Of a stretch of 64,000 bases of DNA, positions 1-26,748 are shown piece by piece. A program made the translations under genes and the position numbers. How positions within the stretch are numbered: the stretch's first letter is position 1; every line of letters starts with the position of its first letter. The stretch comes from an uncultured Alphaproteobacteria bacterium (GTDB taxonomy: Bacteria; Pseudomonadota; Alphaproteobacteria; CAAHEQ01; UBA3637): NCBI GenBank assembly GCA_944392125.1, contig CALXVP010000001.1, positions 289,020 through 353,019 of the forward strand, read 5' to 3'. The notes beneath the pieces are model-generated. The model saw nothing but the letters and a program-made list of their open reading frames with translations, was not told the DNA's origin and did no database searches.

Positions 1-1567
1 CTTTACCTGTCGTCAAAAGGTCGGTCGAGGACTTCGTTTATGTGTCAATCAAGATGGCGAACGCATTGAGGATAAAGACGTCAATGTTTTGCATGTCATT
101 GCTAATGAAAGTTTTGCCGAATTTGCCGATAAACTGCAAAAAGAAATTGAAGAAGAAACCGGCGTTAAGTTTGGCGTTTTGGAAATCGGTATGTTGACAG
201 GATTAACTTACGAAGAAGAAGTTAAGGTTGAAAAACAAATCTCTCAGGAAACTGCCGAAACAGTCGTCCAAGAACTTCAAAAAACTGGCATTATTGATGT
301 TTGTGGAGCGGTTAATAAAGAAGTGTCCGTTGAAGCAATTGAGCTTTCAAGTGTGCCGGAACCTGTAAAAAAAGAAATTATTGAAACGATAAAGCAGGAA
401 AAACCCGTAACAGTTGCATCCCTTTCACAGACAACCTATACCGAAACAAAGGTTGAAAAAGTTTCTGTCAGCTATGAAGAAGCTGTTCAAATCATGGAAG
501 ATTTAAAAGGTACTCAGGTCATTGACAGTAAAGGTAAAATCAAAGATACCATGAAGGCAGAACTGGCCGCTGGTACATTAAATTTAAGTGACAGATGGTC
601 AAAGGCAAAACAACGTGCTGTTTTACAGGCCTTAAATAAAGCCGATAATAAACCGGTTATTCGTGATGCAAGCAAAGAAGTGACTGTTAAATTAAAGAAA
701 AAAGCAATCCTTAGTCCCGAATTTATGGAATTGTGGAATAAAATCAAGCAAAAGACCACTTATCGTGTCCAGTTTGATTTAGATACTTTGGTTGCAAATA
801 GCATTAAAGAAATTAAGGAAATGCCTGAAATCGGAACGGCTCGTTTACTCAGTCAAACAGCTAATGTTCATATTGAAAAATCGGGTGTTTCGCACCAAGC
901 AGGAAGAACATTTATTCAAGATTTAACCCGTAACTATGAAACATTACCGGATATTTTACGCCTGATTTCCACCAAGACACTTTTGAAACGGTCAACAGTT
1001 AATCGTATTTTACAAGAAAGTGGTCGCATGGCAGACTTTTTGAAGAATCCGCAAGAGTTTTATGAAAAAACATTGGAAATTATTGAACGCAATCGTCATA
1101 AATTGGCTATTGACGGTATTAAGTATATTAAACTCGCCGATGAAGAATACTATGTTCAAGAAATTTTTGACAGCACTGAGTTGATTGCCAACCTTGATAA
1201 AAATGCTGTACCCGTTGAAAACAGTGTTTATGACCATGTCATTTATGATAGCGGTATTGAAAGCAAATTTACTCTTGCCTTGGATAAAGATCCGGATGTT
1301 AAAATGTTCTTTAAAATCCCAAGCCGATTTAAAATTGAAACACCTATCGGAACCTATAATCCGGACTGGGCCGTTTATTTAGAGAAAAATGGCGAGCAAA
1401 AACTTTACTTTGTGTTAGAAACCAAAGGAACGGATAATTTATTCTTACTCAGAGAAGAAGAAAAGTTGAAAATCATGTGTGGAGCCGAACACTTTAAGGC
1501 TTTGGATGGCGTTGGTTTTTCAAAAAATCCTGTCAGAGAATGGCAAGAATTTAAACAAACGATTTAA
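1..1567 (+). CDS. Type III restriction enzyme Res subunit, C-terminal part (5' end outside window)
   Basis: The reading frame is open to the window start. A helicase motif VI-like QKVGRGLRL sits near the start. The C-terminus has a PD-(D/E)xK-like nuclease region (YNPDWAVYLE...ETKG). Confidence 0.55.
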   Translation, partial: FTCRQKVGRGLRLCVNQDGERIEDKDVNVLHVIANESFAEFADKLQKEIEEETGVKFGVLEIGMLTGLTYEEEVKVEKQISQETAETVVQELQKTGIIDVCGAVNKEVSVEAIELSSVPEPVKKEIIETIKQEKPVTVASLSQTTYTETKVEKVSVSYEEAVQIMEDLKGTQVIDSKGKIKDTMKAELAAGTLNLSDRWSKAKQRAVLQALNKADNKPVIRDASKEVTVKLKKKAILSPEFMELWNKIKQKTTYRVQFDLDTLVANSIKEIKEMPEIGTARLLSQTANVHIEKSGVSHQAGRTFIQDLTRNYETLPDILRLISTKTLLKRSTVNRILQESGRMADFLKNPQEFYEKTLEIIERNRHKLAIDGIKYIKLADEEYYVQEIFDSTELIANLDKNAVPVENSVYDHVIYDSGIESKFTLALDKDPDVKMFFKIPSRFKIETPIGTYNPDWAVYLEKNGEQKLYFVLETKGTDNLFLLREEEKLKIMCGAEHFKALDGVGFSKNPVREWQEFKQTI

Positions 1568-1680
1568 AATGAGAAGATAATGGCAAATTAAGTAAATTTT
1601 TAGTTGATTTTAATTTATTTTTAATTTATATAATAATTTTGATGGTAAAAACTAATATTATTTTTTATAGGGAGGATATA

Positions 1681-2112
1681 ATGACAGAAAGAAATGTCGG
1701 AGTTGGTTGCGGCGTTCTCTTATTGAATGATAAAGGACAATTTTTGATGATGAAAAGGGCCTCAAAGCACGCAACGGGAACTTATGCTATTCCCGGTGGT
1801 TGGATGGAGTTTGGAGAAACCTTTGAACAGGTTGCCGAGCGGGAAGTTATGGAAGAGCTTGGTGTTGAAATTGAAAATGTAAAGGTTCTAGGTGCTACAA
1901 ATAATATCTTTCCTATGGAAAATAAACATACGGTTGCTATTATTTTAGCGGCAAAACTTAAATCGGGGACACCGCGTATAATGGAACCGGATAAATGTGA
2001 AAGCATTGCCTGGTATGATGATTGGGAACAGTTGCCGACACCACTCTTTACAGACTATAACAAGTATATTTCAAAAGAACAAATTCAAAATTATGTCAAA
2101 TCAAATCTATGA
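1681..2112 (+). CDS. NUDIX hydrolase
   Basis: Nudix box GGWMEFGETFEQVAEREVMEELGV. RBS gggagg lies upstream of ATG 1681, so I used this later start rather than the ORF-track start. Confidence 0.8.
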   Translation: MTERNVGVGCGVLLLNDKGQFLMMKRASKHATGTYAIPGGWMEFGETFEQVAEREVMEELGVEIENVKVLGATNNIFPMENKHTVAIILAAKLKSGTPRIMEPDKCESIAWYDDWEQLPTPLFTDYNKYISKEQIQNYVKSNL

Positions 2113-3397
2113 TGTAATTGTTATCGGAGCAGGTCCGGCAGGTCTGTTTTCTTCTAGAATCCTAGATAAAAAAGGATTAAAGGTTTTATTATTAGAACAG
2201 GGTTCTAATGTTGCACATAGAGTTTGCGTAAAAAAGGAAAAATGTCAAAATTGCTATACGTGTGCGGAAACTTCTGGAATTGGAGGAGTTGGTGGTTATT
2301 CAGATGGAAAGTTATGTTTAGGTCCAGTTGGAATAGATGACGAGTTATTAGGAGATTCGTATTTATCAGAGTCGGCAGAAATTGAACATATTTTTGCAGA
2401 AAATTTGGGTGATAGAATTATATACCCTCAGTCTAAAAATTTTTTTATGCAGAAGAATAATTTTACTGAGGAGTCAACGCGGGTTATAAAATTAGGAAGT
2501 AATAATGTCAGATTTGCATTCCAGAAAATATTTGATGAATTGACTGTAGAAAAGTCAATACTAACAAGAGTTAATAGTATTCATAAAGCTAGTGATTTAT
2601 TCTTGGTTAAGACGCAAAATAAAGTTTTTTCAACAAAATATGTTGTTTTAGCAACAGGTAAATCTGATCTGCTTTTAAAAAATACCATTCTGCAAGAATT
2701 TTGTATTAATTCTGAGATTGGTTATCCATGTGTAGGCGTGAGAATAGAGGTCCCTCGAATTCAAGCTAAATTACTAGAGGAAACAGCAGAAAATTTAAAA
2801 ATAAAAATGAAGTTCTCAAAAGGATATGTAAAAACACATTGTTTTTGCTCCGCTGGTGAAGTTATTTCTTATAAAAGCAATGGTAATTTGCTAATAGGTG
2901 GTCGTTCTAATTCTGATCAAAGTTCTTCTTTTACAAATGTGGCTATTCTATATAAGTGTATAGATAATGACTTGAAACATGAGGCTTTATTATCTTTAAG
3001 GGCAATTTCAAAATTGTATCCTCATAATACTTTTTTTGAAAGTATTGCTTCTTTTGTTGGCAAAAAACAAGAAAGACTAAAAGTTATCCCTTTATCAAGC
3101 TCAATTCCCTATGAGATAGGTAAGTTATTTCCCGATGAAATTTCCAGTGCACTTAAGACATTTATTTTAAACTTGGAGAAAGAAAAATATATTGATTTAA
3201 CAGGTGGTATTGTTCATGCGCCTTGTTCGGAGTGGACAACACCCAAAATAATAACTTCTTTTGTGGGCGAAACAACACATAATTTATTTTATGTTGGTGA
3301 TGGTTCAGGAAGAACTCAGGGTATTGTTGCAGCAGCAATTATGGGACAACGAGCGGCTCGAGCTATATTAGAACGGGAGCAGAAAAATGGCAGATAA
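2093..3397 (+). CDS. FAD-dependent oxidoreductase (COG2509-like, with CxxC cluster)
   Basis: Dinucleotide-binding motif DVIVIGAGPAGL immediately after internal Met (MSNQIYD). CQNCYTC motif present. Overlaps the NUDIX stop by 20 nt. Confidence 0.65.
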   Translation: MSNQIYDVIVIGAGPAGLFSSRILDKKGLKVLLLEQGSNVAHRVCVKKEKCQNCYTCAETSGIGGVGGYSDGKLCLGPVGIDDELLGDSYLSESAEIEHIFAENLGDRIIYPQSKNFFMQKNNFTEESTRVIKLGSNNVRFAFQKIFDELTVEKSILTRVNSIHKASDLFLVKTQNKVFSTKYVVLATGKSDLLLKNTILQEFCINSEIGYPCVGVRIEVPRIQAKLLEETAENLKIKMKFSKGYVKTHCFCSAGEVISYKSNGNLLIGGRSNSDQSSSFTNVAILYKCIDNDLKHEALLSLRAISKLYPHNTFFESIASFVGKKQERLKVIPLSSSIPYEIGKLFPDEISSALKTFILNLEKEKYIDLTGGIVHAPCSEWTTPKIITSFVGETTHNLFYVGDGSGRTQGIVAAAIMGQRAARAILEREQKNGR

Positions 3398-3986
3398 ACT
3401 GAAAAGAGAAGATTATTTAAAAAATCCCTTTTTTATTGCAAGGCATATTTTACTAGGAGCGTATCTTTGCACAAATATAGATGGGAAACTCACAAGAGGG
3501 AAAATTACTGAGGTGGAGTTATATATTGGTGGGAAAGATAAAGCCTCTCATAGTTATGAGTATAAAAGGACAGCACGAACAGAAATTCAATACCACATTG
3601 GTGGGCATGCCTATATTTTTAAAATTTATGGTATGTATGATCAATTTTGCGTGGTAACTAATGATATAAATATTCCGAATGTAGTATTAATTCGTTCTTT
3701 AGAACCTATAGAAGGAATTGATGTTATGAGGGAAAGAAGAAAAACAAATAATATAAGAAACCTAACAACTGGCCCGGGAAAACTGTGTCAGGCATTGGGG
3801 ATTAAAACAGATGAACACTATGGTATTGATTTATTAGGAGATTTAATTTGGATATCTCCAAAATTGGAAGAAATTAAAATTTCAGACATTATCGCAACAC
3901 CGCGAATAGGGATTGATTACGCACAGGAGTACGTGAAAAAACGCTGGCGTTTTATATTAAAAGACAATAAATATCTTAGTCGTTAA
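3387..3986 (+). CDS. DNA-3-methyladenine glycosylase (Mpg/AAG family)
   Basis: Mpg family signatures: EVELYIGGKDKASH, YIFKIYGMY, LIRSLEPIEG, GPGKLCQALGI. Start overlaps the upstream gene by 11 nt. Confidence 0.8.
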   Translation: MADKLKREDYLKNPFFIARHILLGAYLCTNIDGKLTRGKITEVELYIGGKDKASHSYEYKRTARTEIQYHIGGHAYIFKIYGMYDQFCVVTNDINIPNVVLIRSLEPIEGIDVMRERRKTNNIRNLTTGPGKLCQALGIKTDEHYGIDLLGDLIWISPKLEEIKISDIIATPRIGIDYAQEYVKKRWRFILKDNKYLSR

Positions 3987-4560
3987 CTCGATCGAATCCT
4001 TTAAATTTATTTAAATATTGACATGATATTTTCGATGCCTGTATAAACGAAAGTGTTTTTCTCAAGACTTCATCTTTACTCTCATTGTTAAATTCGATAC
4101 ATGGAGATTTGAAGAGTGAGAGATTAAACTCCTCAAGTAATAAGTTGTCTCGATGTAATCTTGATGCTATTTTCTGAATTTGATCACCGCGATTGACCAT
4201 TCTTCGTTTGAGAGCACCTTGTGATGGATTTAAATAAATAATTCGGAGCAGTTGATCGGCAAAAATCCTCTCGACCTCTTTAGCAAAAGATAAATCAATA
4301 GCTACAATTCCATTTGGCTTACAAAGTTCTTTTTCCTCAATCCCATAGTAATCTGTTCCATTATTAAAACTTATTCTATATTTACGTTTTTGAAACTCGT
4401 CATGAGAAACAAAATAATAATCTTTTGAATCAATTTCCCCCATTCTTTTAAGACGAGTTGTTGTACAAATAATGTTTGAGAAACTTGAATTTGAAGATAA
4501 CAATCCCTCTTTCAAAGTTGTTTTTCCGCTCCCACCGGCACCAAACAAAATTATTAACAT
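3976..4560 (-). CDS. P-loop NMP kinase, guanylate-kinase-like
   Basis: Walker A GAGGSGKTT and a TTR motif (CTTTRLKRMGEIDSKDYYFV) typical of the GMP kinase fold. Convergent with Mpg. Confidence 0.55.
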   Translation of the reverse strand: MLIILFGAGGSGKTTLKEGLLSSNSSFSNIICTTTRLKRMGEIDSKDYYFVSHDEFQKRKYRISFNNGTDYYGIEEKELCKPNGIVAIDLSFAKEVERIFADQLLRIIYLNPSQGALKRRMVNRGDQIQKIASRLHRDNLLLEEFNLSLFKSPCIEFNNESKDEVLRKTLSFIQASKISCQYLNKFKGFDRVND

Positions 4561-4725
4561 GTTTTCCTCCTTTATATATATTATATGATTTTAAATTAAG
4601 ATTCAATATTTTTGATAAAAATAAGTTAGGGAAGCATCCAATAAAACCCATGATTTATATAGTTTTTACTTGCTAAAATACATACCTTTTGTTACATTAT
4701 ATAGGATTATGAAAGGCTTCCAAAA

Positions 4726-7380
4726 ATGAATAAGCAACTTTCTCCCCGTTTTCCCACACCTTTTGCCGCCTTTGCCGAACAACGGCGGCTAGACTGCTAT
4801 ATTGAGGATGAAGGGCTTGTTGCTGCATATGCGTCATCGGATATTCAAATTTTACCCTATCAAATCGCAGCGGCCCGTTTTGCTTTGCGATCTGCAAACA
4901 TAAAAGGCTGTATTTTATGTGATGAAGGCAGTCTTGGTAAAACTTATGAGGCTTTGTTGGTTGTATCGCAACGTTGGTATGAAGGTAAAGAACGGATTTT
5001 AATCGTTTTGCCCCAAAACCTTAAAAGTCAATGGCAAGAAAAATTAACCAAAGAATTTACTCTACCGATAACCGATTGGAGCGAATATACACAAGAGACC
5101 AAAGGCCTGTGCCTGATGACGTATGATGAAGTCATTAAAAATGAAGAAAAAGTCAGTCAAATCATTTGGGATTTAGCTGTTTTTGACGAGGCAGACTTTC
5201 TGTTCAAACCGGGTAATAAGTCAGTTGCCATGATTAAAAAGGCAGTTGGAAATGCGTTTAAACTGCTGTTAACACCAACGCCCATTACATTAAGCATTAT
5301 GGATATTTACGGACTTATCCATTTTATTGATGAAACTTTATTGCCCGATGCAGACAGTTTTTATAAAAGGTATTTTAGAAAACCCGAAAACTATCCCGAA
5401 CTTTCATCTTGGGTGTCTAAGTTTGCGTTTAGAACGCTCAAAAAACAGGTTGAGCCTTATGTTAATTTCACCAAACGCTTGCCGGTTGTTCTCAATTACA
5501 CGCCACAAGACAAGGAGAAAAAGCTCTATGATTTAACCGAAAAATACTTGGCTCTTGATAACAAAACTGCCTATCCGCAAATGGATAATTATCAGTTAGC
5601 ATTACAATTTTATAGAACTCTTTCTTCCTCTCCGCAGGCTTTTGCGAATATGTTGTCGGCTCCGATTGAACGGGCTTCGTCTGATGAACGCATTATTTTA
5701 CATACAATGCAAAAAATGGCTTTGGAAATACCCCTTTCTGCTAAAATGGAAGAATTGTTAAAGGCTCTTAAAACAACATTTGCTCATTTAAAATCTCGCA
5801 AAGAAGTGCAAAAAGCCATTATTTTTGTTGATAACCTGACAACTTTATCCGTTTTATCAGAGTTATTAAAGGAACATTATTCGATTATAAAACACACAGA
5901 TGATAATGCTTTGAACATTTTTAGAGAAGATAAAAATATTCAAATTCTTATCACAAACGATGCAACTGCCAAAGGCTTAGACATAGAATATTGCCCCATT
6001 GTTGTGAACTATGATTTACTTTATAATGCCGTTGAGATGGAACAACGAATTTGTCGTTGCCACCGCCAAGGACAACAATCCGATGTGTTGGTTATCAATT
6101 TGCTCAGTCAGGAAAATATGTCTGATGTGCGTATTTTGGAATTGATTAACAAACGAACTTTACAATTTCAGGGTATTTTCGGGATGTCAGACGATATTGT
6201 CGGTCATTTTGATGAAACTTTGGAGGCTGTTTTACAAAAACGCCGAACCTTGCCCGATATTCAAAGGGATTTTGCACAGAACTTAGAGATAAATAAAGAT
6301 GCCAACGCTCAAGTGGTTTCTGATGCCGAAAGTGTATTGTTTACGACATTTACAAAAGATGTAGCCGAAAAAGTACAGGTTTCACCGCAGTATATTCAAG
6401 AACAGGCCGAATTCATCAATCGGGACTTGTGGGAAGTTGTAAAGTTTTATTTTGAAAAGCATCATCCTCAATATATTATTGATGACATCAATCAAACATT
6501 AACTTTACCGGATGATTGTGAACAACCGCATATGTTCTATTATTGGACTGGGACAAGAAACACACCTTATATAGGAAAACGTCAGTATGGTATGGCCAAA
6601 GATTTTAAACCAGCAAGCGGAAGAATTACCTTAACTTCTATTTTAGCCAAGGGAATTTTTAGTGAAATTGAATGTGCTACAGAGGGCGAAATAAACCTTG
6701 AAACAAATATTGAACCTTGCCAAATCAGTATGTACAATGTCGAATTACGTCGAAAGGGAAAGTTTCTTAAAAGTTATGATGTTTTAACCGGTAAGACGAG
6801 AGATGGCAGGATTTTAACCCAAGAAGAATGTGTCAAAATTTTATCACAGCCAATTAAATCTGTTGAAAATAAGGATAGAGAACGCTCTTATTGGCTAGCA
6901 AACAGTTCGTTTTCTGACAGGTTGCCAGTATTCTTAGAAGATGAGTTGAAAAACAACTATATCAAACAACAAGAAGGTGCTTTTAATACGGATATTGATA
7001 TTATTAAAATGCGTTCATCTCGTCAAAAAGCCGTACTAGAACAAACTCTTGAATCCTTACGCCAAGAAACATCAAAGATTAAGGACTGCATCGGCAGTGC
7101 CAAAGACCGCTTAGAAGAACTTAAAATTCAAAAACAAATCAACGAAAAAGAAAAACAACTCCGCAAAAAGGAAGAAGGCTTGTTTTTTGAACAAATGCGC
7201 ATCGAAGCCAACGCCGAAGAACAAATTGAAAAATTATGTGGAACGGACGGAATATCTGTCGTAGTATCACCGATATTTAAGGTGCAATTTCAAAAAACAC
7301 CCATCATGGATGAAACCCAAGACAAGTGCTTTTTTTTAAATAGAAGTATGACTACTTCACAGCTATTGCGTTTTAACTAA
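4726..7380 (+). CDS. SNF2-family helicase with coiled-coil C-terminal extension
   Basis: Motif I DEGSLGKT, motif II VFDEADFL and motif VI CHRQGQQ. A predicted coiled coil lies near residues 760-840. Confidence 0.8.
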   Translation: MNKQLSPRFPTPFAAFAEQRRLDCYIEDEGLVAAYASSDIQILPYQIAAARFALRSANIKGCILCDEGSLGKTYEALLVVSQRWYEGKERILIVLPQNLKSQWQEKLTKEFTLPITDWSEYTQETKGLCLMTYDEVIKNEEKVSQIIWDLAVFDEADFLFKPGNKSVAMIKKAVGNAFKLLLTPTPITLSIMDIYGLIHFIDETLLPDADSFYKRYFRKPENYPELSSWVSKFAFRTLKKQVEPYVNFTKRLPVVLNYTPQDKEKKLYDLTEKYLALDNKTAYPQMDNYQLALQFYRTLSSSPQAFANMLSAPIERASSDERIILHTMQKMALEIPLSAKMEELLKALKTTFAHLKSRKEVQKAIIFVDNLTTLSVLSELLKEHYSIIKHTDDNALNIFREDKNIQILITNDATAKGLDIEYCPIVVNYDLLYNAVEMEQRICRCHRQGQQSDVLVINLLSQENMSDVRILELINKRTLQFQGIFGMSDDIVGHFDETLEAVLQKRRTLPDIQRDFAQNLEINKDANAQVVSDAESVLFTTFTKDVAEKVQVSPQYIQEQAEFINRDLWEVVKFYFEKHHPQYIIDDINQTLTLPDDCEQPHMFYYWTGTRNTPYIGKRQYGMAKDFKPASGRITLTSILAKGIFSEIECATEGEINLETNIEPCQISMYNVELRRKGKFLKSYDVLTGKTRDGRILTQEECVKILSQPIKSVENKDRERSYWLANSSFSDRLPVFLEDELKNNYIKQQEGAFNTDIDIIKMRSSRQKAVLEQTLESLRQETSKIKDCIGSAKDRLEELKIQKQINEKEKQLRKKEEGLFFEQMRIEANAEEQIEKLCGTDGISVVVSPIFKVQFQKTPIMDETQDKCFFLNRSMTTSQLLRFN

Positions 7381-7495
7381 TATTTAGGATTACGGTTTAA
7401 TTATTATTGATTATCGTGGTAAGTTATGATATAGTAAAGCAACAAAATGTCGTGTACTGGAGTATTATTCTTTAAAATACAAGAAAGATAATGTT

Positions 7496-8410
7496 ATGAG
7501 AAATTTGGTTGTATTTGATTTTGGAACAAGTAAAATTAAGACCTTGTTATGCAAAGTTGATGATTTTGGGAAATTTACAAAAAAAACAGAATTCACAAAT
7601 GTTTCCATAGGAAAATTATTATCTGATAACAATAAAATTTTCAATGATGAAAAATATGCAATTCTAAATGACTTCAATGAAAAAATAAATGGTCTTATGG
7701 AAAACTTTCAGGATACCGAGCTTGAGTTTAAAGCTATCGCAACAGAGGCTTTTAGAAAAAGTCATGAACTAGAAGATGCCCTTTATAAAGCTACCAATAA
7801 GTTTAGTATAGATTTAGAGATATTAACACCGAGGAGAGAGTGTGAACTGTTGGCTGCCAATTTTAACTTAACAGAATCTGATTTACTTTTGGATATAGGT
7901 GGTGGAAGCATAAACACTATCTATAAATGTAAAGGCATGTTAAATACCCACTGTTATAGCTTAGGCGCGTATGTTTTACATAATTTATTCCAAAGTAATG
8001 GTGAGTTATTTGATAATGCCATCTATACAGCTATGGATAAATATATAAAAAAAGAAATATTTTCTTCTATTTGTCACAGAACCTTTACGAGGGTTGTTGT
8101 TGGATCAAACCAGATGCTCAGTTTCTTTAATAGTCTTTCTGAGAAAACTGGGCTCAATTTTATGCGTAACGATTCTTTTGATGCTAGCTGCATCAATACG
8201 TTAATAAATAATGTTTTTTTGGACAGAAAGTATGAAGATTTATTTCAATATTTTGAACAAAACCCAAGTTTTATGTATGGAGCAGATAAAATGTTATTGA
8301 TTTTAGAAAATTTCGTTAAATTTTTTGATATTAAAGTAATATCTCCTACAGATGATGGAATAGCGTTAGGTTTTGTAAAAACCTGTTTAAACTTGGCTCC
8401 ACTTTCATGA
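7496..8410 (+). CDS. Ppx/GppA-family (ASKHA fold) phosphatase-like protein
   Basis: Phosphate-1 motif VVFDFGTSKIK and phosphate-2 motif LLLDIGGGSINT, as in the exopolyphosphatase/GppA N-terminal domains. Confidence 0.5.
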   Translation: MRNLVVFDFGTSKIKTLLCKVDDFGKFTKKTEFTNVSIGKLLSDNNKIFNDEKYAILNDFNEKINGLMENFQDTELEFKAIATEAFRKSHELEDALYKATNKFSIDLEILTPRRECELLAANFNLTESDLLLDIGGGSINTIYKCKGMLNTHCYSLGAYVLHNLFQSNGELFDNAIYTAMDKYIKKEIFSSICHRTFTRVVVGSNQMLSFFNSLSEKTGLNFMRNDSFDASCINTLINNVFLDRKYEDLFQYFEQNPSFMYGADKMLLILENFVKFFDIKVISPTDDGIALGFVKTCLNLAPLS

Positions 8411-8417
8411 TATTACT

Positions 8418-9095
8418 ATGATTTATTTAAAATACGATTTGAACGATGAAAAAGTAAAATATCTTATTCAAAGCGATGAAAATTTGGGTAAGCTAATCAA
8501 ATATATTGGTTCTAGTGAACTAGCTATAGAGGAAGATTCTTTTAAATGTCTTGTAAAATACATTATTGGACAGCAAATCAGTGATAAAGCACGCGAAACA
8601 ATTTGGAAAAAAGTTTGCTCTAACATTGAAAATATTGCCCCTAATGACATATTAGGAATGAGTGATGAAGGGCTTTATAAAGCGGAAATTCCAAGACATA
8701 AAGTTAAATATATAAAGGCGTTAGCACATGAAATTGTAAGAAAAAGAATAGATTTTGAAATATTACAAACACTTTCAAATGAAAAGATAATTTCGCAATT
8801 AACTTTAGTAAAAGGTATTGGGAGGTGGACCGCTGAGATGTATTTGATTTTTTCATTAAAACGAGAAAATATTTTTTCAGAGAGTGATGGAACTCTTAAG
8901 CGTGTTATCCAATGGATGTATAATCTGAATGAAATACCTTCTACAGGAGTAATAAAGGAATACTTCTCTAATTGGATGGAGTACGCTACGATTGTTTCTT
9001 CATACCTATGGAAATCTATTGAATTAGGGTTAATTTGTAAACCATTTGAGCAGGTAATTTCGGGAAAACAAGGCGATGTAGATAATGTTAGATAA
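8418..9095 (+). CDS. HhH-GPD superfamily DNA glycosylase (AlkA/Ogg-like)
   Basis: Helix-hairpin-helix LVKGIGRWTAEMYLIF followed by a conserved Asp (SESDG). Confidence 0.65.
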   Translation: MIYLKYDLNDEKVKYLIQSDENLGKLIKYIGSSELAIEEDSFKCLVKYIIGQQISDKARETIWKKVCSNIENIAPNDILGMSDEGLYKAEIPRHKVKYIKALAHEIVRKRIDFEILQTLSNEKIISQLTLVKGIGRWTAEMYLIFSLKRENIFSESDGTLKRVIQWMYNLNEIPSTGVIKEYFSNWMEYATIVSSYLWKSIELGLICKPFEQVISGKQGDVDNVR

Positions 9096-10326
9096 CTTAT
9101 ACTGGATGAAATATTCCATAAATATTTCACAAAAAGCACCTTGGTCTAAACTAAAAACAGGTGTGGTACTTGTTTCCAAGCAAAATGAATTGATTTGTTC
9201 CGCTTACACTGGGGAAGAAGATAATTCATCTTGGCTGGATGTTTTGTTAAAAAAAATAAAAGGTAGTAGTCTTTTCAATGGATGGTGTCTTTATCTCACG
9301 GTTAATACATTATCGAAAACAGAGTCATTTGATCTAATTGAATTACTAAAGCTAATTCACGTTCGTAAAATATATGTAGGGCTCCCGGATTTTAGGCTGG
9401 AAAATTATCTAAACGGGGATCCTGTTCTGGTACTAGATTATGTTCATCGTTACCCTGATGATTTACAACGTGAAATATTAAAACAGAATAAGCGTTTTTA
9501 CGCAAACAGTAGACAAAGCATTCAGTATAGTTCGTACTATTCTGCTAATAGAATCAGCAGTTTTGTGTTAGAGAAACTGGAACGAAAAGGTATAACTATT
9601 TCTGAAGAAGAGCTTAATATAAATAAAAAAAGTACAGCTCTCGCATCTTTAATTTTTAATAAATATGAAATTGAGTATGAGAAGGCCGCTTGTATAGTAG
9701 ATAATATCTTATCCGAGGCCTTTAATAACAAATATAGTAAATATGATTATTTGAATGATATACGTTCATTTGATTTAGGATGGAAACAAACCTTTCAATC
9801 TATCTATAACAGGGTATCTAAGAAGCCGATGCCTGGTATGAATATACTAAATGTTGGTGTTGGTTCTGGAAATGAAGCTATTAGTTTATTTTCAAATTGT
9901 CCTCATATCACCTTTGTTGATATTGCTGGGGAGGGACTTGAACGAATTAAAATACAACTTCCATTATCTAATTTTGTTGTTTCTAAAGCGGAAAATTTAT
10001 CTTCTTTGAATGAAAATAGCTATGAATTATATATTTCTTTAAGAACCTATAATTCTTCATTTTTTGATATTAATCATGCAATATCAGAAGCATACAGGGT
10101 GTTAAAAAAGGATGCTATTATAATTATTTCCATAGCCAATGGATTTTTATGTTCTGGGGAAAAACGAATTATCCCTGGTTTAATAGTTCCAGGTACAGAT
10201 TTTGTTGATATTTATAGGGGGATAGATACAGTTAAGTTGCTACATAAAAACTTCGTTCAAATAGGATTTAAAAATATTCAAATTTTCCCAACTAAAACAG
10301 AAAGTTATTTAACAGCAGTCAAGTAA
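9085..10326 (+). CDS. Fusion protein: degenerate cytidine/dCMP-deaminase-like domain + class I SAM-dependent methyltransferase
   Basis: The N-terminus resembles the RibD/dCMP-deaminase fold but lacks HxE and PCxxC. The C-terminus has methyltransferase motif I ILNVGVGSGNEA and a post-I acidic residue (FVDIAG). Confidence 0.5.
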   Translation: MLDNLYWMKYSINISQKAPWSKLKTGVVLVSKQNELICSAYTGEEDNSSWLDVLLKKIKGSSLFNGWCLYLTVNTLSKTESFDLIELLKLIHVRKIYVGLPDFRLENYLNGDPVLVLDYVHRYPDDLQREILKQNKRFYANSRQSIQYSSYYSANRISSFVLEKLERKGITISEEELNINKKSTALASLIFNKYEIEYEKAACIVDNILSEAFNNKYSKYDYLNDIRSFDLGWKQTFQSIYNRVSKKPMPGMNILNVGVGSGNEAISLFSNCPHITFVDIAGEGLERIKIQLPLSNFVVSKAENLSSLNENSYELYISLRTYNSSFFDINHAISEAYRVLKKDAIIIISIANGFLCSGEKRIIPGLIVPGTDFVDIYRGIDTVKLLHKNFVQIGFKNIQIFPTKTESYLTAVK

Positions 10327-10345
10327 TCAAACAAAGGCGAGTATT

Positions 10346-11062
10346 ATGATGAAACAAATAACTTTTGCAGATAACGTATTGCGCTTTCATGATGAACTTT
10401 CACATCAATCACTTTCATTGCCAGAAGGGTTTAGACTGGTCAATCCATTTGTTGCCGCTCAAAAAGAGAAAGTAAAACAGGTAACAACGCTTTTTTATCA
10501 AAAATATTATAACGATAGTAATCCTAGACGCCTTATACTTGGGAGTTCTCCAGCCAGACGGGGGACAGCCGTGACCGGCGTTCCCTTTGAAGATGCGGCA
10601 CATCTTCAAAAAGAAACAGGAATTTCCATTGATAAATTTTTTATCAATCACTCTTCATCAGGATTTTTATATGAAGTTATGGATGAATATGGTGGTTGTA
10701 ATAAATTTTATGCGGACTTTTATATGAGTTTTGTTTGCCCTCTTGGGATAGTTAAAATAAACTCAAAAGGTAATGAGGTTAATTGTAATTATTATGAAAA
10801 TAAAAAATTACGAGAGGTATTATCACCATTTATTGTACGTATGCTTCATCGACAAATAACTTTAGGTATTGATACATCTGTATGTTATTGTATTGGGAGT
10901 GGTGAAAATTATAGCTTTTTGTCTACACTTAATGAAGAGCATAAGTTTTTTGATTTAATATTACCATTAGAGCATCCTCGTTTTATAATGCAATACAATT
11001 TAAAAGATAAAGAAAAATTTATGAATAAATATATGAATGCATTTTGTAAGTATAAAAGTTAA
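10346..11062 (+). CDS. Uracil-DNA glycosylase superfamily protein (family 4/SMUG-like, DUF4918-like)
   Basis: LGSSPARRGTAVTGVPFED resembles the UDG motif GEAPG..E..G.PF. Confidence 0.5.
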   Translation: MMKQITFADNVLRFHDELSHQSLSLPEGFRLVNPFVAAQKEKVKQVTTLFYQKYYNDSNPRRLILGSSPARRGTAVTGVPFEDAAHLQKETGISIDKFFINHSSSGFLYEVMDEYGGCNKFYADFYMSFVCPLGIVKINSKGNEVNCNYYENKKLREVLSPFIVRMLHRQITLGIDTSVCYCIGSGENYSFLSTLNEEHKFFDLILPLEHPRFIMQYNLKDKEKFMNKYMNAFCKYKS

Positions 11063-11095
11063 TACAATGTAAAGTTTCTATGAATGGAGGAAGAA

Positions 11096-11875
11096 ATGGA
11101 AAATAGAGACAATAAAACACTGGTACATTTTAATACAGATACCATTAAAATATATGATTTAAAAAATGGTATATTAAAAATGTTAAATGAGGAGCGTGTT
11201 TCCTTTGGAACAGGTTGTTTAAGTGAGGTTTTAGAGAAGATAAAAGAATTTTTAAATCATTTAAGCAATTATACAAACGAAATAAATAATACATCTGTCA
11301 GGTTATATGCCACGGGTTTATTCCAAAATTTTAAACAGGAGGAAAAAAATCAAATAGTTAATAACATTTTCGTGGATTATGCTCTTTATTTTAATGTAGT
11401 GCCTTTCGATTTAGAACAGTTTTATTTGCAAAATAGCAGAAATATTTGTGAATCTGAAAATATGATACAAGGATTGCTATGTCAGGAATTTAGAAATGTT
11501 GTTGTATGCGGAAGCTTTCAACAGTTTTTACAAGACATTGAAAAACTGATTAAACATTTATATAGGTATAATATTAATGTACTTAGTCCAGCCTCAACAA
11601 AAATTAAACCAGAAACAATAGGAACTGAGTTCATTCTTTTTGATTATCAAGACTGTATTAAAAATGAGCGTGATACTTGGCGGCATAAGTATGAACATAT
11701 GGAAAAATTTAGACAAGCGGATGCTATTATCGTTTGTGATCCTCGTGGAGTGGTTGGCAAGGGAACTATATTTGAGTTTGGTTTTATGACTGCTATTTCA
11801 AAAAGGATCATATTTATGGAACAGCCAAAAAATATATCCATTTTCTTTCCGTATGAGATTGGACTTAATTTTTAG
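11096..11875 (+). CDS. Protein with C-terminal nucleoside 2-deoxyribosyltransferase-like (Rossmann-like) domain
   Basis: C-terminal ADAIIVCDPRG...GKGTIFEFGFMTAISKRII matches the nucleoside 2-deoxyribosyltransferase core motif. The RBS ggagg precedes the ATG at 11096. Confidence 0.45.
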   Translation: MENRDNKTLVHFNTDTIKIYDLKNGILKMLNEERVSFGTGCLSEVLEKIKEFLNHLSNYTNEINNTSVRLYATGLFQNFKQEEKNQIVNNIFVDYALYFNVVPFDLEQFYLQNSRNICESENMIQGLLCQEFRNVVVCGSFQQFLQDIEKLIKHLYRYNINVLSPASTKIKPETIGTEFILFDYQDCIKNERDTWRHKYEHMEKFRQADAIIVCDPRGVVGKGTIFEFGFMTAISKRIIFMEQPKNISIFFPYEIGLNF

Positions 11876-11925
11876 GAAACAGATGTCGAATCTTAGCGAT
11901 ATATAAAAATTTTAAAAAGATGCTA

Positions 11926-12120
11926 TTAATTCGAACACATTTCATCATAAACGAGGTTATTTCGGTCAATTTGCCGGATAGTTTCGGGTGTATCTTGCTC
12001 GTAATCCGCATAAATAGGCTCGTAAATCAGGCAGAAATCACCGTTTATATTTGTCGTGCAACCGGCGGATGCGGTCAATATCAATAACATTATCCCGTAT
12101 CGTTTTAGCTTTTTGAACAT
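11926..12120 (-). CDS. Rz1-like outer-membrane spanin lipoprotein (copy 1)
   Basis: Signal peptide plus lipobox LTASAGC. Partly overlaps the Rz-like gene in another frame. About 90% identical to copy 2. Confidence 0.6.
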   Translation of the reverse strand: MFKKLKRYGIMLLILTASAGCTTNINGDFCLIYEPIYADYEQDTPETIRQIDRNNLVYDEMCSN

Positions 12121-12304
12121 TTTCCAAGGTTCCTTTCATTGTTTTGACTTGTTCTTTATGTTTTCCTTTTTGGTAGCCCAGCAGGTATAAAATTGCTAAA
12201 CCACCGCCGATAATCCAATATTTTGCTTTATTCCAAGCTGTCGTTATGAGTGTCCACATTGTAGTTTTCCTTTCATTTTTTTTGTGTTTAGATTTGTTTT
12301 GTTG
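11928..12304. repeat. Direct repeat copy A (~375 bp, spanin module)
   Basis: About 90-93% identity to 13927-14293 by eye. Confidence 0.8.
12038..12259 (-). CDS. Rz-like inner-membrane spanin (copy 1)
   Basis: N-terminal TM (WIIGGGLAILYLL) followed by a charged/coiled region. The internal Met matches the start of copy 2. Confidence 0.5.
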   Translation of the reverse strand: MWTLITTAWNKAKYWIIGGGLAILYLLGYQKGKHKEQVKTMKGTLENVQKAKTIRDNVIDIDRIRRLHDKYKR

Positions 12305-12445
12305 CAAATATCTAAAAAACGACAGCTTCCGCAAGGAATTTCCAGAATTCTACCTTTAAAACCATTCAAAAGATTGTTAAAAATAAGGTCTGTATCAGAA
12401 GTATCTGAAAATTCCAAATCATAAAAGACACTTCTGTCCTTATAA

Positions 12446-13566
12446 TCATTTAATTTCATTCCAGTGTTCCATATGGCGTTGAACTTCAAAGTGGACTATC
12501 TTTCCGTTTTCAACAATTTTACCTGCTTCTGCTACATCATAAGGTTTTTGAGTATAAATACCCTCTGCCATTTGATATAGATAGTATGAGAGATGCTTTG
12601 ACATTGCCTGTACCGTTGTTACAGAATAAGCTGATGGCAGTACATCAATTTTACAATGTAATACACCATATTTTGAAAAAACAGGATTTTCAAGTGTTGT
12701 ATTGTGATCAAATGTTTCTATATATCCAGAACCATAACCACAGGTTACATCCATTATAATGGCGCCTTTTTTCATTTTTTTCACCATTTCTTTTGTTACA
12801 ATGGGTTTTGTATCATAAGTGGATATTAAAATAGCCCCAATCAACACATCTGCATCTAACAATTCTTGGCGTAATTTGTTAGGCGTATTTAGAAAACACT
12901 TAGTATTTGTTGGCATTGATGCCTGAAATGCTCTTAATTTTTCCCTGTTTTGGCCAAAAACAACTACATTTGCCCCCCATGGAAGCAGCCATTCTTGCAG
13001 CGGCACCACCCGCATTCCCATACCCGATGACAACAACCTTTGGTGGCTTTACATTCACCATAGGAGCTAATAAAACACCGGAGCCCCCTCTATTATTCTG
13101 TAGATGGTAAGCGGCAAAAATAACAGCTACTTTTCCTGCAATTTCACTACTTGCAACAGAAGCGGGAAAAATACCTTCTTTTGTTTTAAAAAATTCATAT
13201 GTATAAGCCGTACATTTACTTTTTAACAATTTATCCGTTAATTCTTTGTTGCCTTCTGCATGAAAAACAGCTCCAATATGTTTATCTGCATTAATAATTA
13301 ATATATTTGAACTCTGAATCAACTGGTGGCTTATATTTAAATATCACATTACTTTGAGTCCAAGCCTGTTTCGTGGAAACAATTTTAGCCCCAACATTTG
13401 CATATTCTTTATCAGGTATACCAATTCCTGAACCTGTGCCTCTTTCAACATATACATCATATCCGTTTTGAATGAATATGCGTAAATCTTCTGGCAAAAG
13501 TATTGTACGTCGCTCTCCTACCTTCTTTTCTTTAATGATAGAAATTGTTTTTTTATTCTTTTTCAT
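12446..13566 (-). pseudogene. Alanine dehydrogenase/PNT-family gene disrupted by two frameshifts
   Basis: Three consecutive overlapping minus-strand ORFs together cover an Ald-like protein. The N-terminal domain is ILLPEDLRIFIQNGYDVYVERGTGSGIG. The NAD-binding segment is VVVIGYGNAGGAAARMAA. The C-terminal segment is GAIIMDVTCGYGSGYIETFDHN. Confidence 0.6.
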
Positions 13567-13568
13567 TT

Positions 13569-13841
13569 TTAGTCCGATATGTCAAATTGAATCACTTGGA
13601 AGCCATACTTGCCAATTTCTTCTTGAGACCAGTAAGTACAATCCTTTGTTTTCATAACATAGGAAACATTGACATTCACTTTACGCCCAGTTTCTTGCTT
13701 TGTAACATCATCTATTTCAACTAAAACGAGTGTATCACCTTGATTGATTTTAAAATCAGCCAAACGTAATTCTGTTTTCTTTTCTCCTGAAAGTACTTTT
13801 TTGAAATATTCTGATAATATTTTCTTTTGAACTTGCGCCAT
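13569..13841 (-). CDS. DUF3850/ASCH-like small protein
   Basis: Pattern ILSEYFKKVLSGEKKTELRLADFKINQGDTLVLVE. Confidence 0.45.
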   Translation of the reverse strand: MAQVQKKILSEYFKKVLSGEKKTELRLADFKINQGDTLVLVEIDDVTKQETGRKVNVNVSYVMKTKDCTYWSQEEIGKYGFQVIQFDISD

Positions 13842-13911
13842 GGTTATCCCCCATACTTTTTGATATTTTCAATATAATATAAAAAATATATAAAAGCAAG
13901 AAAATTTTTTA

Positions 13912-14109
13912 CTACGTTTCTATACAAATTTCATCATAAACAAGGTTATTTCGGTCAATTTGCCGGATGGTTTCCGGTGTATCTTGTTCGTAATCCGCAT
14001 AAATCGGCTCGTAAATCAGGCAAAAATCACCGTTTATATTTGTTGTGCAACCGGCGGATGCGGTCAATATCGATAACATGATCCCGAATAATTTTAGCTT
14101 TTTGAACAT
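13912..14109 (-). CDS. Rz1-like outer-membrane spanin lipoprotein (copy 2)
   Basis: Near-identical paralog of 11926-12120 with the same lipobox. Confidence 0.6.
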   Translation of the reverse strand: MFKKLKLFGIMLSILTASAGCTTNINGDFCLIYEPIYADYEQDTPETIRQIDRNNLVYDEICIET

Positions 14110-26140: not shown

Positions 26141-26160
26141 TAAGATACGGAGATTTCAAA

Positions 26161-26742: not shown

Positions 26743-26748
26743 TTTACC

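Follow-up and report, generated by a model that had tools for sequence, protein, structure and literature searches.

Nucleoside 2-deoxyribosyltransferase (NDT)-like effectors occur in retron defence (PMC13276650), lone genes for UDG-fold and HhH-fold glycosylases are able to give anti-phage defence (PMC11078745; bioRxiv 10.1101/2025.10.29.685425), and the aGPT-Pplases are glycosylase-fold proteins that modify DNA bases (PMC8989533). The locus studied here carries genes for such folds within an island that varies between strains of an uncultured alphaproteobacterium from the gut. A preliminary description of the window, by which we mean the whole stretch of 64,000 nucleotides that was analyzed, had grouped ten genes between 1681 and 11875 into one novel defence or DNA-modification system. 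We recovered its open reading frames at the same coordinates, with genes overlapping at 2093-2112, 3387-3397, and 9085-9095, and a Pfam search backed every domain call for the ten genes. As it had also proposed, the region is AT-richer than the housekeeping end (GC of 0.29 to 0.36 over 1-14 kb versus 0.41 to 0.52 over 31-64 kb) and neighbors a prophage, with tail and portal genes from 14.6 kb onward. The ten-gene cluster is, however, no single system: it is a mosaic in which three modules are inherited independently. We are highly confident of this mosaic structure together with the conserved cassette that it contains.

The sole conserved multi-gene unit of the three modules is the five-gene operon at 7496-11875, which consists of the following genes.

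7496..8410, plus strand: Ppx/GppA-like ASKHA phosphohydrolase, operon gene 1 (Ppx-GppA PF02541, 35.8 bits against a cut-off of 27, 8e-9)
8418..9095, plus strand: AlkA/Mag-type HhH-GPD DNA glycosylase (HhH-GPD, 2e-14)
9085..10326, plus strand: MT, a zinc-less deaminase-fold domain joined to a class I SAM methyltransferase, core gene 1 (Pfam class I methyltransferase plus an extra N-terminal domain)
10346..11062, plus strand: SMUG2-type UDG-fold protein, core gene 2 (UDG, 3e-13; PDB 5h0j, 1.8e-63)
11084..11875, plus strand: half-GppA plus NDT fold, core gene 3 (Nuc_deoxyrib_tr, 1.5e-4, under the Pfam cut-off)

The last three genes (MT, UDG, and NDT; 9085-11875) are the invariant core of the operon. 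This trio is previously undescribed, and no published description of it or of the operon was found in the literature. In 75 of the 80 species-level loci compared, the three genes share one strand and one fixed order; four of the five exceptions are short or rearranged contigs. These loci span Actinomycetota, Bacillota, and Pseudomonadota (among them Streptomyces, gut Firmicutes, and Listeria), and 45 to 60% identity is kept across phyla. The MT and NDT families are apparently confined to the trio association, and in one case (P0362) MT and UDG are naturally fused, with an NDT-like gene following. The cassette is accessory and mobile: it was found on a conjugative element, beside Tn3, between IS elements, on giant linear plasmids, and beside tRNA and tmRNA genes, and recombinases or transposases make up about 20 of the 139 nearest neighbors.

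The other two modules lie upstream of the operon and comprise these features.

2..1567, plus strand: Res, type III restriction subunit, an intact gene of which the 3' part lies in the window (RE_endonuc, 3e-37; PADLOC REase_III, 1.5e-83)
1574..4801, no single strand: strain-variable 3.2 kb insertion holding NUDIX, FAD-oxidoreductase, Mpg, and a convergent kinase (strain alignment)
1639/1681..2112, plus strand: NUDIX hydrolase (PF00293, 3e-19)
1997/2093..3397, plus strand: FAD-dependent oxidoreductase (Pyr_redox_3, HI0933_like, FAD-depend_C)
3387..3986, plus strand: Mpg/AAG-type 3-methyladenine DNA glycosylase (PF02245, Pur_DNA_glyco, 8e-52)
3976..4560, minus strand: guanylate-kinase-like P-loop kinase, convergent with Mpg (PF00625, 5e-15)
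4726..7380, plus strand: SNF2-family helicase (Pfam; DrmD equivalog, 257 bits against a cut-off of 950)

Res and SNF2 form one module, with Mod upstream of the window. Res had been taken for a remnant, but its frame stays open as far as base 2, the gene being cut by the window edge, and in two other assemblies of the window species (L001 and L103) it is complete (1047 amino acids) and has Mod upstream. Homologues of SNF2 with 50 to 65% identity adjoin Mod and Res in other taxa, in differing gene orders. SNF2 is therefore an accessory partner of the type III restriction-modification system and not of the operon, and it adjoins the trio in the window species only.

The insertion between Res and SNF2 is the second module. 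Its NUDIX, called as a 143-amino-acid gene in L001, scored far under the cut-offs of all NCBIfam equivalogs, while Mpg exceeded that of TIGR00567 (167 bits; cut-off, 116) and the kinase fell under that of TIGR03263 (77 bits; cut-off, 160). The FAD oxidoreductase gene shares 20 nt with NUDIX and 11 nt with Mpg, and a protein identical to its product was found only in contigs of the window species. L013, from the same species, aligns to window positions 1-1573 and 4802-12304 with just 65 bp between them; there, SNF2 and the operon come straight after Res, and the NUDIX-FAD oxidoreductase-Mpg-kinase block is absent. L107, in turn, carries this block and SNF2, diverges from the window at position ~7239, and has Ham1-like and PfkB genes in place of the operon. 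Across the 80 species-level loci, neither Res and SNF2 nor the NUDIX, FAD oxidoreductase, and Mpg genes of the insertion were found beside the trio outside the window species; weak homologues of the guanylate-kinase-like gene lie 4 to 5 kb from it in two other loci (L089 and L090).

A single system had been suggested by the dense, mostly co-directional, AT-rich arrangement with its several overlaps and its common theme of nucleotide processing and base excision. This is contradicted by the strain comparisons, as the sub-blocks occur separately in L013 and L107. Moreover, what recurs across 80 other species is no more than the trio, at times accompanied by the HhH-GPD and Ppx genes, and SNF2 travels with type III restriction-modification; we thus give the ten-gene system hardly any credence. 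Conservation of the neighborhood, the comparison put forward in the preliminary description, held for 7496-11875 and failed for the genes at 1681-7380, which are not co-conserved with the trio. The 7.5-11.9 kb operon that it had singled out is indeed a co-conserved, undescribed unit.

In MT, the first protein of the trio, a helical linker connects the deaminase-fold domain (about residues 1-125) to the SAM methyltransferase domain (about residues 245-413). The fusion of deaminase-like and methyltransferase parts had been recognized correctly. A role as a DNA methyltransferase is not supported, since neither DPPY nor Pro-Cys motifs were found in MT and the structures that it matches best are those of small-molecule methyltransferases. 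The UDG-fold protein shares about 47% identity with a bona fide DNA glycosylase and matches 5h0j, a structure of SMUG2. In the MUG, TDG, and SMUG families, an Asn positions the hydrolytic water. This Asn of SMUG2 (GINPGRFG) is replaced by Ser in all but one of about 85 trio-linked UDG copies (GSSPxxxx, mostly GSSPARRG, the lone exception being GSNPARRA), whereas the His motif HPRF/Y is kept. Because the catalytic Asn is lost, hydrolase activity is in doubt, and the protein may, judging from these motifs, not be a hydrolase at all. Core gene 3, which starts at 11096 in the gene calls of other assemblies, encodes an N-terminal half-ASKHA domain resembling domain I of Ppx/GppA and lacking the DxG phosphate motif, followed by a C-terminal nucleoside 2-deoxyribosyltransferase fold. 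The Pfam match to this fold is weak in the window protein, but homologues and a fold comparison confirm it; its catalytic Glu is invariant.

These features bear on two further explanations. One is a chance neighborhood of ordinary housekeeping repair genes without joint function, in line with the Mpg score above its curated family cut-off and with the existence of AlkA-type and SMUG2-type enzymes as stand-alone repair genes. For 9085-11875 this is contradicted by the gene order fixed across three phyla, the MT-UDG fusion, and the cassette-specific motif change, which is incompatible with chance; the apparent restriction of the MT and NDT families to the trio also speaks against it. We regard chance as extremely improbable for the locus, although it is possible for the 1574-4801 block. 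The other is a DNA-modification writer, in which the Asn-less SMUG2-like protein would flip a target base out of DNA without cutting and hand it to MT, yielding an unusual methylated base. Policing or recycling of the modified or unmodified base would then fall to the AlkA-type glycosylase and the NDT-like protein. The loss of Asn from an otherwise maintained fold, the MT-UDG fusion, the 11-nt overlap that tightly couples the HhH-GPD and MT genes, and the precedent of the aGPT-Pplases all fit. We nevertheless find a writer highly doubtful: MT resembles small-molecule enzymes, the trio has no conserved nuclease or restriction partner, and the nucleotide-level NUDIX, Ppx, and NDT enzymes would be unexplained.

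The accessory genes vary by lineage. The HhH-GPD protein matches solved 3-methyladenine glycosylases (2h56, 1e-29; S. pombe Mag1, 2e-22), and the hairpin GIGxWT(A/S/V)EMY, with its invariant core GIGxWTxEMY, and the catalytic Asp are kept in 29 of 29 operon copies. Of 39 non-actinobacterial species, 26 have its gene immediately before the trio; the actinomycete versions lack an AlkA-type glycosylase, and a DNA-level step is therefore not universal. The Ppx/GppA-like gene, whose product matches Aquifex Ppx/GppA at 1e-4, is a lineage-specific accessory with homologues adjoining the trio in two other Proteobacteria (L030 and L096). Immediately ahead of the core is a slot filled by Ppx/GppA in three Proteobacteria, by NUDIX, in the same position, in 15 to 17 Firmicutes loci, and by CYTH in 4 to 5 loci. 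That non-homologous phosphohydrolases of the same function are swapped in this slot argues for a nucleotide-level step. Besides these glycosylase and phosphohydrolase partners, thymidylate-kinase-like genes accompany the trio in some lineages and PKS-like genes in Streptomyces.

Such neighbors raise the question of a biosynthetic cassette, making a methylated nucleobase or nucleoside-derived small molecule. The NDT-like enzyme would free or transfer the base, MT would methylate it, and phosphohydrolases and kinases would adjust its phosphate state; PKS-like enzymes would elaborate the product in Streptomyces and pumps would export it elsewhere. Of about 40 actinomycete species, all have genes for an ACP-AMP-ligase, KS, KS, and an ACP-thioesterase just after the trio and a phosphotransferase gene (APH-like in Streptomyces) adjacent to it, whereas the genes on the upstream side differ. 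ABC and MFS exporters, PqqD, radical SAM, and LOG-like neighbors occur in Listeria, Legionella, and other loci, MT is of the small-molecule type, and sequence conservation is as high as is typical of metabolic enzymes. However, a biosynthetic role does not account for two DNA-glycosylase folds, of which one retains its catalytic Asp and an entire DNA-binding hairpin while the other is so close to a bona fide DNA glycosylase. Furthermore, biosynthetic or export genes are absent from the surroundings of most Firmicutes loci, and ABC transporters, present near 21 of about 85 loci, are not clearly above chance. We consider this role unlikely.

Abortive infection would also use the glycosylase folds, here as sensors of phage DNA, with the NDT-like protein as a toxic effector destroying NAD+ or nucleotides, like the NDT-like effector of retron Ec86. 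The operon occupies a strain-variable slot beside type III restriction-modification and a prophage and is often mobile-element cargo, and both the retron effectors and the single-gene defensive glycosylases are precedents. On the other hand, none of the four core proteins matched a PADLOC model, known defence genes are a handful of the 139 nearest neighbors, and no reverse transcriptase or retron RNA was found with the operon. Divergence across phyla is very slow, which is unusual for sensor/effector pairs, and the PKS linkage in Streptomyces would be left unexplained; such a system thus seems to us quite improbable. No phage record carrying the operon was found either. The suggestion of a defence island is borne out as to strain variability and adjoining restriction genes, and a defence function has little support; HMM searches confirmed the domains through Pfam and gave no PADLOC model for the operon.

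The handling of a non-canonical base at both the DNA and the nucleotide level, already suggested in the preliminary description, fits the operon enzyme set best. Our best reading of these protein families, held with low confidence, is that the operon may clear one non-canonical base from the nucleotide pool and from DNA. A phosphohydrolase (Ppx/GppA-like here, NUDIX or CYTH in other lineages) would trim an aberrant nucleoside polyphosphate to the monophosphate, whose N-glycosidic bond the NDT-like enzyme would cleave through its conserved Glu in a DNPH1- or MilB-like manner. In DNA, the same base would be found by the SMUG2-like protein and by the AlkA-type glycosylase, in which the HhH hairpin and the catalytic Asp are intact. 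The zinc-less deaminase-like pocket of MT would hold the freed base or nucleotide, methylation would block its salvage, and neighboring exporters, in some loci, could then remove the methylated base. The base might come from phage DNA or nucleotides, which would mean immunity, or from a nucleobase-analogue antimetabolite, which would mean resistance or self-protection. Several observations run against clearance: thymidylate-kinase-like genes and the Streptomyces APH-like phosphotransferase are unexpected in a pure clearance pathway, the four genes following the trio in actinomycetes look biosynthetic, the catalytic Asn and the DxG motif are missing, and no LexA box or riboswitch gave a regulatory clue at the operon. 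As an overall explanation, a three-module mosaic with a base-clearing operon is the best we can offer, at somewhat less than an even chance.

Clearance by this operon would have human parallels in known enzymes, including NUDT15, MutT, and TPMT. The best structural matches of MT include TmtA and XrdM, small-molecule methyltransferases that inactivate toxins. DNPH1 (PMC10603095) and SMUG1 (PMC12699328) are further human parallels.

The AT-rich end of the window harbors the genes listed here.

Genes in the first 12 kb of the window, from the ORF list and Pfam.
2-1567, 3' part of a type III Res gene
1681-2112, NUDIX protein
2093-3397, FAD-dependent oxidoreductase
3387-3986, Mpg
3976-4560, opposite strand, guanylate-kinase-like gene
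4726-7380, SNF2 helicase
7496-8410, Ppx/GppA-like protein
8418-9095, HhH-GPD glycosylase
9085-10326, 413-aa protein with a C-terminal class I methyltransferase domain
10346-11062, UDG-superfamily protein
11084-11875, nucleoside 2-deoxyribosyltransferase (weak match)

Every gene named in the preliminary description of this DNA was borne out by the ORF list and the Pfam scans, and the three gene overlaps claimed there are present in the ORF list. The claimed AT-richness was likewise found, with a GC content of 0.29 to 0.36 in the first 14 kb versus 0.41 to 0.52 between 31 and 64 kb. Res had been taken for a remnant, which is wrong, as its reading frame stays open up to the window's first bases and the gene encodes 1047 aa behind Mod in other assemblies of the same species. 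A genome in GTDB (CASEYR010000003.1) shares 99% protein identity with the window organism, an uncultured gut alphaproteobacterium. A nucleotide search of E. coli genomes with window 1600-12000 gave no match, and a promoter and terminator scan of 1400-12600 gave no signal above the shuffled expectation. A second AT-rich stretch (25103-30232, GC 0.29 to 0.38) carries sugar-nucleotide genes, namely a GDP-mannose-dehydratase-like gene, a SIS isomerase, a GHMP kinase, a nucleotidyltransferase-HAD fusion, and an RmlD-like reductase, and is probably a surface-polysaccharide or heptose island. Further on lies a two-partner secretion pair made of a ShlB/FhaC-type TpsB transporter (31108-33180) and a 5232-aa exoprotein with an N-terminal TPS domain (33174-48872). 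The prophage encodes a ParB-N domain fused to an N6/N4 DNA methyltransferase (21336-22553, minus strand).

The last three genes of the list, encoding the methyltransferase fusion (MT), the UDG-like protein, and the nucleoside 2-deoxyribosyltransferase (NDT)-like protein, form a conserved trio with a fixed order and, in one case, a gene fusion. Scanning one genome per species yielded 86 relatives of the MT fusion, and 80 loci were kept. The family shows 52 to 78% identity along its full length and is found in Streptomyces, Kitasatospora, Saccharothrix, Clostridia, Bacilli, Tenericutes-like MAGs, Caedibacter, and Rickettsiales and Holosporales MAGs. Of these loci, 75 have the MT, UDG-like, and NDT-like genes one after another in this order and on one strand; among the five exceptions, four are contigs that are short or rearranged. 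The NDT-like family gave 245 matches, all of about 260 aa, including proteins of Listeria monocytogenes and of a Legionella MAG. Furthermore, we found a metagenomic protein (P0362, 655 aa; L102:102-2069) representing a natural in-frame fusion of MT and the SMUG2-like UDG protein, with an NDT-like gene (45% identity) after it; P0362 occurs on one contig only and could be an assembly or frameshift artefact. No description of the MT-UDG-NDT combination was found in the literature searched.

The genes around the trio vary by lineage. HhH-GPD immediately precedes the trio in 26 of the 39 non-actinobacterial species and in none of the actinomycetes. The slot preceding HhH-GPD is occupied by the Ppx/GppA-like gene in the window and by a NUDIX gene in 15 to 17 Firmicutes loci, and Ppx homologs were found near the trio in two further Proteobacteria (L030 and the Legionella locus L096). 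CYTH phosphohydrolases are present near the trio in four to five loci, and thymidylate-kinase-like genes in Listeria, L098, and others.

Comparison of loci from the same species showed that the ten-gene stretch is a mosaic. In one of them (L013), two stretches match window 1-1573 and 4802-12304 and are separated by 65 bp; this locus contains Res, SNF2, and the five-gene operon from Ppx/GppA-like to NDT-like, and lacks NUDIX, FAD oxidoreductase, Mpg, and kinase. Another (L107) is 97.5% identical to window 1-7239 and has this four-gene block and SNF2, but past about 7239 it carries a 100-aa ORF, a Ham1-like ITPase, and a PfkB-family kinase instead of the five-gene operon (L107:9068-11009). The same variable slot 3' of SNF2 thus hosts a different nucleotide-handling module, and each block exists without the other. 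There is therefore no single ten-gene system of the kind that had been proposed. This is in agreement with the neighborhoods of the 80 species-level loci with an MT-fusion homolog: Res, NUDIX, FAD oxidoreductase, Mpg, and SNF2 of the window never recurred there, and the kinase had weak matches in two loci. A metagenome scan found no relatives of the FAD oxidoreductase. A dense and thematically coherent gene cluster can nonetheless be mosaic.

Two copies of a 370-bp direct repeat (11935-12304 and 13924-14293, 93% identical) lie at the 3' side of the operon. Between them are an alanine dehydrogenase gene broken into three ORF pieces (12446-13566, minus strand) and a DUF3850/ASCH gene (13569-13841). 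L013 has a single copy of the repeat and none of the bracketed content, which points to an indel via recombination between the repeats.

On the other side, Res belongs to a type III restriction-modification (R-M) system (RE_endonuc, 3e-37; REase_III, 1.5e-83), and complete Res and Mod genes, a regular type III pair, are present in L103 to L106. SNF2 homologs of other gut taxa (50 to 65% identity) adjoin Mod and Res in differing orders, such as Mod-AbiTii-Res-SNF2 and SNase-SNF2-Mod-Res, indicating that SNF2 is a partner of the type III R-M system. In the type III R-M system of this lineage, SNF2 is conserved while its position relative to Mod and Res shifts between taxa, and the slot between Mod and Res, upstream of window position 1, holds a variable small gene encoding KilA-N, Bro-N, or AbiTii (L099, L101, L103, L104, L105, and L106). 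The arrangement may represent an undescribed three-component type III variant. The helicase core of SNF2 is common to DrmD of DISARM (PADLOC, 9e-81, partial), but the curated model NF038318 gave 257 bits against a cut-off of 950, which rules out that SNF2 is DrmD. DISARM also requires DrmA, DrmB, DrmC, and a methyltransferase, and PADLOC found no further Drm match among the scanned window genes. MADS was rejected as well, the only matches being mad2 (4.5e-8, a generic methyltransferase fold) and mad8 (0.0064); the MAD6, MAD7, and MAD8 proteins, which are mandatory in that system (bioRxiv 10.1101/2023.03.30.534895), are absent here. A link to MADS through neighboring genes was dropped, as the mad3 matches are not the thymidylate-kinase-like genes.

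We established the fold assignments and motif states of the encoded proteins. In the AF2 model of the MT fusion (pLDDT, 85.7), the N-terminal 125 residues follow the a-b-b-a-b-a-b-a-b order of the cytidine deaminase fold. A fold search with the whole model returned matches to the methyltransferase domain only, and the N terminus was therefore judged from this topology and from weak profile matches: PF00383 in 12 of 18 members (best 1.6e-3, below cut-off) and dCMP deaminase, RibD, and TadA in the PDB (E values of 0.6 to 2). The zinc ligands H/C-x-E and P-C-x-x-C are missing, the corresponding positions reading GEE...SW and TINTLS, and the family has no conserved His or Cys pair. The term "deaminase-like" used in the preliminary description hence probably applies to the fold but not to the activity, since without these motifs the domain is not an active deaminase of a known kind. 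As for the C-terminal domain, Pfam matches were limited to Methyltransf_11, Methyltransf_25, and UbiE, and the best fold matches were small-molecule methyltransferases. We rejected an R-M-type DNA methyltransferase, as the family alignment contains neither (D/N/S)PP(Y/F) nor Pro-Cys motifs and no DNA methyltransferase Pfam family was matched.

The UDG-like protein matches PF03167 above the cut-off (2.6e-13) and aligns over residues 5 to 234 with PDB 5h0j, which we take to be SMUG2 of Pedobacter heparinus (E value of 1.8e-63, about 47% identity over the full length). It shares the SMUG2 fold and the second motif E-H-P-R-F/Y, whose His (HPS/HPR) is kept in essentially all trio-linked copies. Motif 1 reads GINPGRFG with a catalytic Asn in SMUG2, whereas nearly all trio-linked copies have lost G-(I/M)-N-P-G and harbor Ser for Asn (GSSPxxxx, mostly GSSPARRG). 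Other SMUG2 representatives read GINPGR(F/L/H/K)G, and a set of 150 representatives of the wider family contained both motif types, with GINPG as the more frequent one. In MUG, TDG, and SMUG enzymes, the motif 1 Asn positions the attacking water. Because this residue is gone, catalysis by the UDG-like protein is predicted to be altered or lost.

In the HhH-GPD protein, the fold of AlkA/Mag enzymes is kept together with their GIG hairpin and, about 20 residues further on, their catalytic Asp; the protein matched short members of this group (2h56, 1e-29; Schizosaccharomyces pombe Mag1, 3s6i, 2e-22). The GIGxWTxEMY hairpin and x-x-D-G-T are invariant in all 29 cassette copies, the latter aligned with the Asp of 2h56 and Mag1. 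The score against the NCBIfam AlkA model NF007641 was only 18.5 bits (cut-off, 229), and by sequence the protein is of the short Mag-type branch and not E. coli AlkA itself. Unlike AlkA/Mag genes, this gene is translationally coupled to the MT fusion and confined to non-actinobacterial cassettes.

The Ppx/GppA-like protein exceeded the cut-off of PF02541 (35.8 bits versus 27) and carries FDFGTS and DIGGGS, corresponding to the ASKHA motifs DxGxN and DxGGGS. It remained well below that of the exopolyphosphatase model TIGR03706 (46 bits versus 307), and the Glu of GGGS-T-E is replaced by Asn (GGGSIN), which makes its predicted activity uncertain. The NDT-like protein was modeled in two domains (AF2; pLDDT, 83.8). 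Its C-terminal domain has the Rossmann-like NDT fold, and the ASKHA phosphate motif of its N-terminal half is degenerate. The window protein scored 22.3 bits with PF05014, below the cut-off of 28.8, and a Streptomyces homolog scored 30.7, above it; many homologs carry this domain. E231, which is the Glu in the G-T-x-F-E-x-G loop, does not vary among 24 sequences and is the putative catalytic nucleophile, as judged from the motif rather than from structural superposition.

The cassette is often the cargo of mobile or variable DNA. It was found on a conjugative element with MobL and a type IV coupling protein, next to Tn3, between IS elements in Legionella, between two sRNA genes in Listeria, and adjoining tRNA and tmRNA genes. 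Such genes are classical integration sites of genomic islands. In one Bacilli MAG (L079:13074-13525), the end of the cassette lies a few hundred bases from the tRNA and tmRNA genes. Giant linear plasmids are among the actinomycete carriers. The 139 nearest ORFs of 40 non-actinobacterial loci included about 20 recombinases or transposases and 15 NUDIX genes, and only a handful were matched by PADLOC to known defense proteins. When all eleven proteins of the region were scanned, PADLOC matched only Res, SNF2 (partial, DrmD-like), NUDIX (generic), and the generic methyltransferase fold, leaving the Ppx, HhH, UDG, and NDT proteins without a match. The defense role suggested earlier is thus unsupported. 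No MT-fusion homolog was found in INPHARED phages or IMG/VR contigs, in a search bearing on phage origin. With respect to SOS regulation, no Cheo or LexA box precedes the operon in the Firmicutes loci, and actinomycete loci gave no more than scattered, degenerate matches. Rfam gave no riboswitch or retron RNA match in window 1-15000 (E values up to 0.1) and none beside the cassette in 14 other loci.

In L. monocytogenes GCA_037096375.1 (L095:3183-10556) and in L098:815-15204, the cassette adjoins a recurring gene pair, encoding a 272-aa protein without Pfam match and a PqqD-like protein. Rce1-like and MFS genes are also nearby in Listeria, and L098 has radical SAM/SPASM enzymes, two thymidylate-kinase-like genes, two ABC exporters, and a CYTH gene. 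These neighbors are RiPP-like. ABC exporters accompany the cassette in 21 loci, a number not clearly beyond what chance would give.

In Streptomyces, Kitasatospora, and relatives, the trio is part of a conserved island of about 11 kb (L093:15986-26841, L094:16016-26750, L028, and about 40 others). In about 40 actinomycete species, downstream of it are invariably an ACP-AMP-ligase, two KS-like genes, an ACP-thioesterase, a small ORF, and an APH-like phosphotransferase, and a NUDIX gene often closes the series; the flank upstream of the trio varies.

Since the enzyme set spans every level at which an unwanted base could be removed, we favor a multilevel clearance pathway for one noncanonical base. 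Trimming of nucleoside polyphosphates would fall to Ppx, NUDIX, or CYTH proteins, which appear interchangeable in one slot across lineages, and the NDT-fold N-glycosidase would act on the monophosphate, cleaving it in the way of DNPH1 or MilB. The AlkA-type and SMUG2-type proteins would rid DNA of the base, and the freed base could then be methylated by the small-molecule methyltransferase with its dead deaminase pocket. The base might stem from modified-base phages or from a nucleobase antimetabolite. However, the lost Asn of the SMUG2-like protein, the kinases, and the actinomycetes devoid of an AlkA-type gene do not fit easily with clearance. The same is true of the strict linkage to PKS-like genes in Streptomyces, which leaves a biosynthetic role of the trio as a live alternative. 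Further alternatives are a DNA-modification writer that combines a base-flipping reader with a methyltransferase, or abortive infection in which the NDT-like protein would serve as the toxin. We consider it improbable that the trio is a three-enzyme system for postreplicative base exchange or base editing that writes or swaps out a noncanonical base and has spread horizontally among Streptomyces, Firmicutes, Listeria, Legionella, and gut Alphaproteobacteria. There, the Asn-less glycosylase-fold protein would extract or flip a base and pass it to the methyltransferase on its dead deaminase pocket, and the NDT-fold enzyme would reattach or exchange bases on deoxyribose.

If clearance holds true, this would be the first operon-encoded pathway policing one aberrant base in both nucleotide pools (triphosphate and monophosphate) and in DNA at once. 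It would unite activities that are scattered in humans (NUDT15, DNPH1, SMUG1, and TPMT) and relevant to thiopurine and PARP-inhibitor pharmacology. Knowledge of the target base would lead to one of three things, a class of modified-base phages, a natural nucleobase antimetabolite, or a new DNA modification; in the case of an antimetabolite, the Streptomyces-linked PKS-like genes would be candidate producer genes. The Asn-less SMUG2, the pseudo-deaminase-methyltransferase, and the half-GppA-NDT are new enzyme architectures and possible base-specific DNA tools. Besides being widespread and strongly conserved, the trio can be tested directly, since its carriers include cultivable and tractable hosts (L. 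monocytogenes GCA_037096375.1, Sporofaciens musculi WCA-9-b2, and many Streptomyces).

The human set for sanitation of the nucleotide pool and DNA includes NUDT15 or MutT-type NUDIX and TPMT. DNPH1 (PMC10603095) and SMUG1 (PMC12699328) are members of the same set. It shows the same combination as predicted here, namely an NTP pyrophosphohydrolase, an NDT-fold dNMP N-glycosidase, a SMUG-type glycosylase, and a small-molecule methyltransferase that keeps a base analogue from being salvaged. However, the human genes are unlinked and have separate targets, whereas here they form one operon, in which MT has a pseudo-deaminase domain and the NDT enzyme a pseudo-GppA domain. The SMUG2 uracil-DNA glycosylase of P. 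heparinus (PDB 5h0j/5h0k) is known from Pang et al. 2017 (PMID 28049757), as cited in PMC8307549 and PMC10776899. Trio-linked copies differ from it in that the MT fusion and the NDT-like protein always accompany them, with fusion to MT in one case; none of the 80 retrieved trio loci is from Bacteroidota, including Pedobacter. Single-gene glycosylase defenses, namely Brig1 (PMC11078745), Brig2, and the Dag families (bioRxiv 10.1101/2025.10.29.685425), are similar in being UDG- or HhH-fold glycosylases on mobile or variable DNA that could attack modified phage bases. They are nevertheless single proteins far diverged from repair enzymes, whereas the HhH protein here is near AlkA/Mag (1e-29) and belongs to an operon of three to five genes with nucleotide-level enzymes and a methyltransferase. 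Compared with MilB and BcmB, the NDT-fold N-glycosidases of nucleoside-antibiotic pathways, and with the NDT-like effector of retron Ec86 (PMC13276650), the cassette NDT has an additional N-terminal module resembling domain I of Ppx/GppA. Near the cassette operon, we found neither a thymidylate-synthase-like hydroxymethylase nor, among the called genes, a retron reverse transcriptase, nor a retron (msr/msd) RNA. We rate the cassette as a set of base-excision and pool-sanitation enzymes gathered in an undescribed mobile unit, and none of the closest described items has this operon architecture or these fusions.
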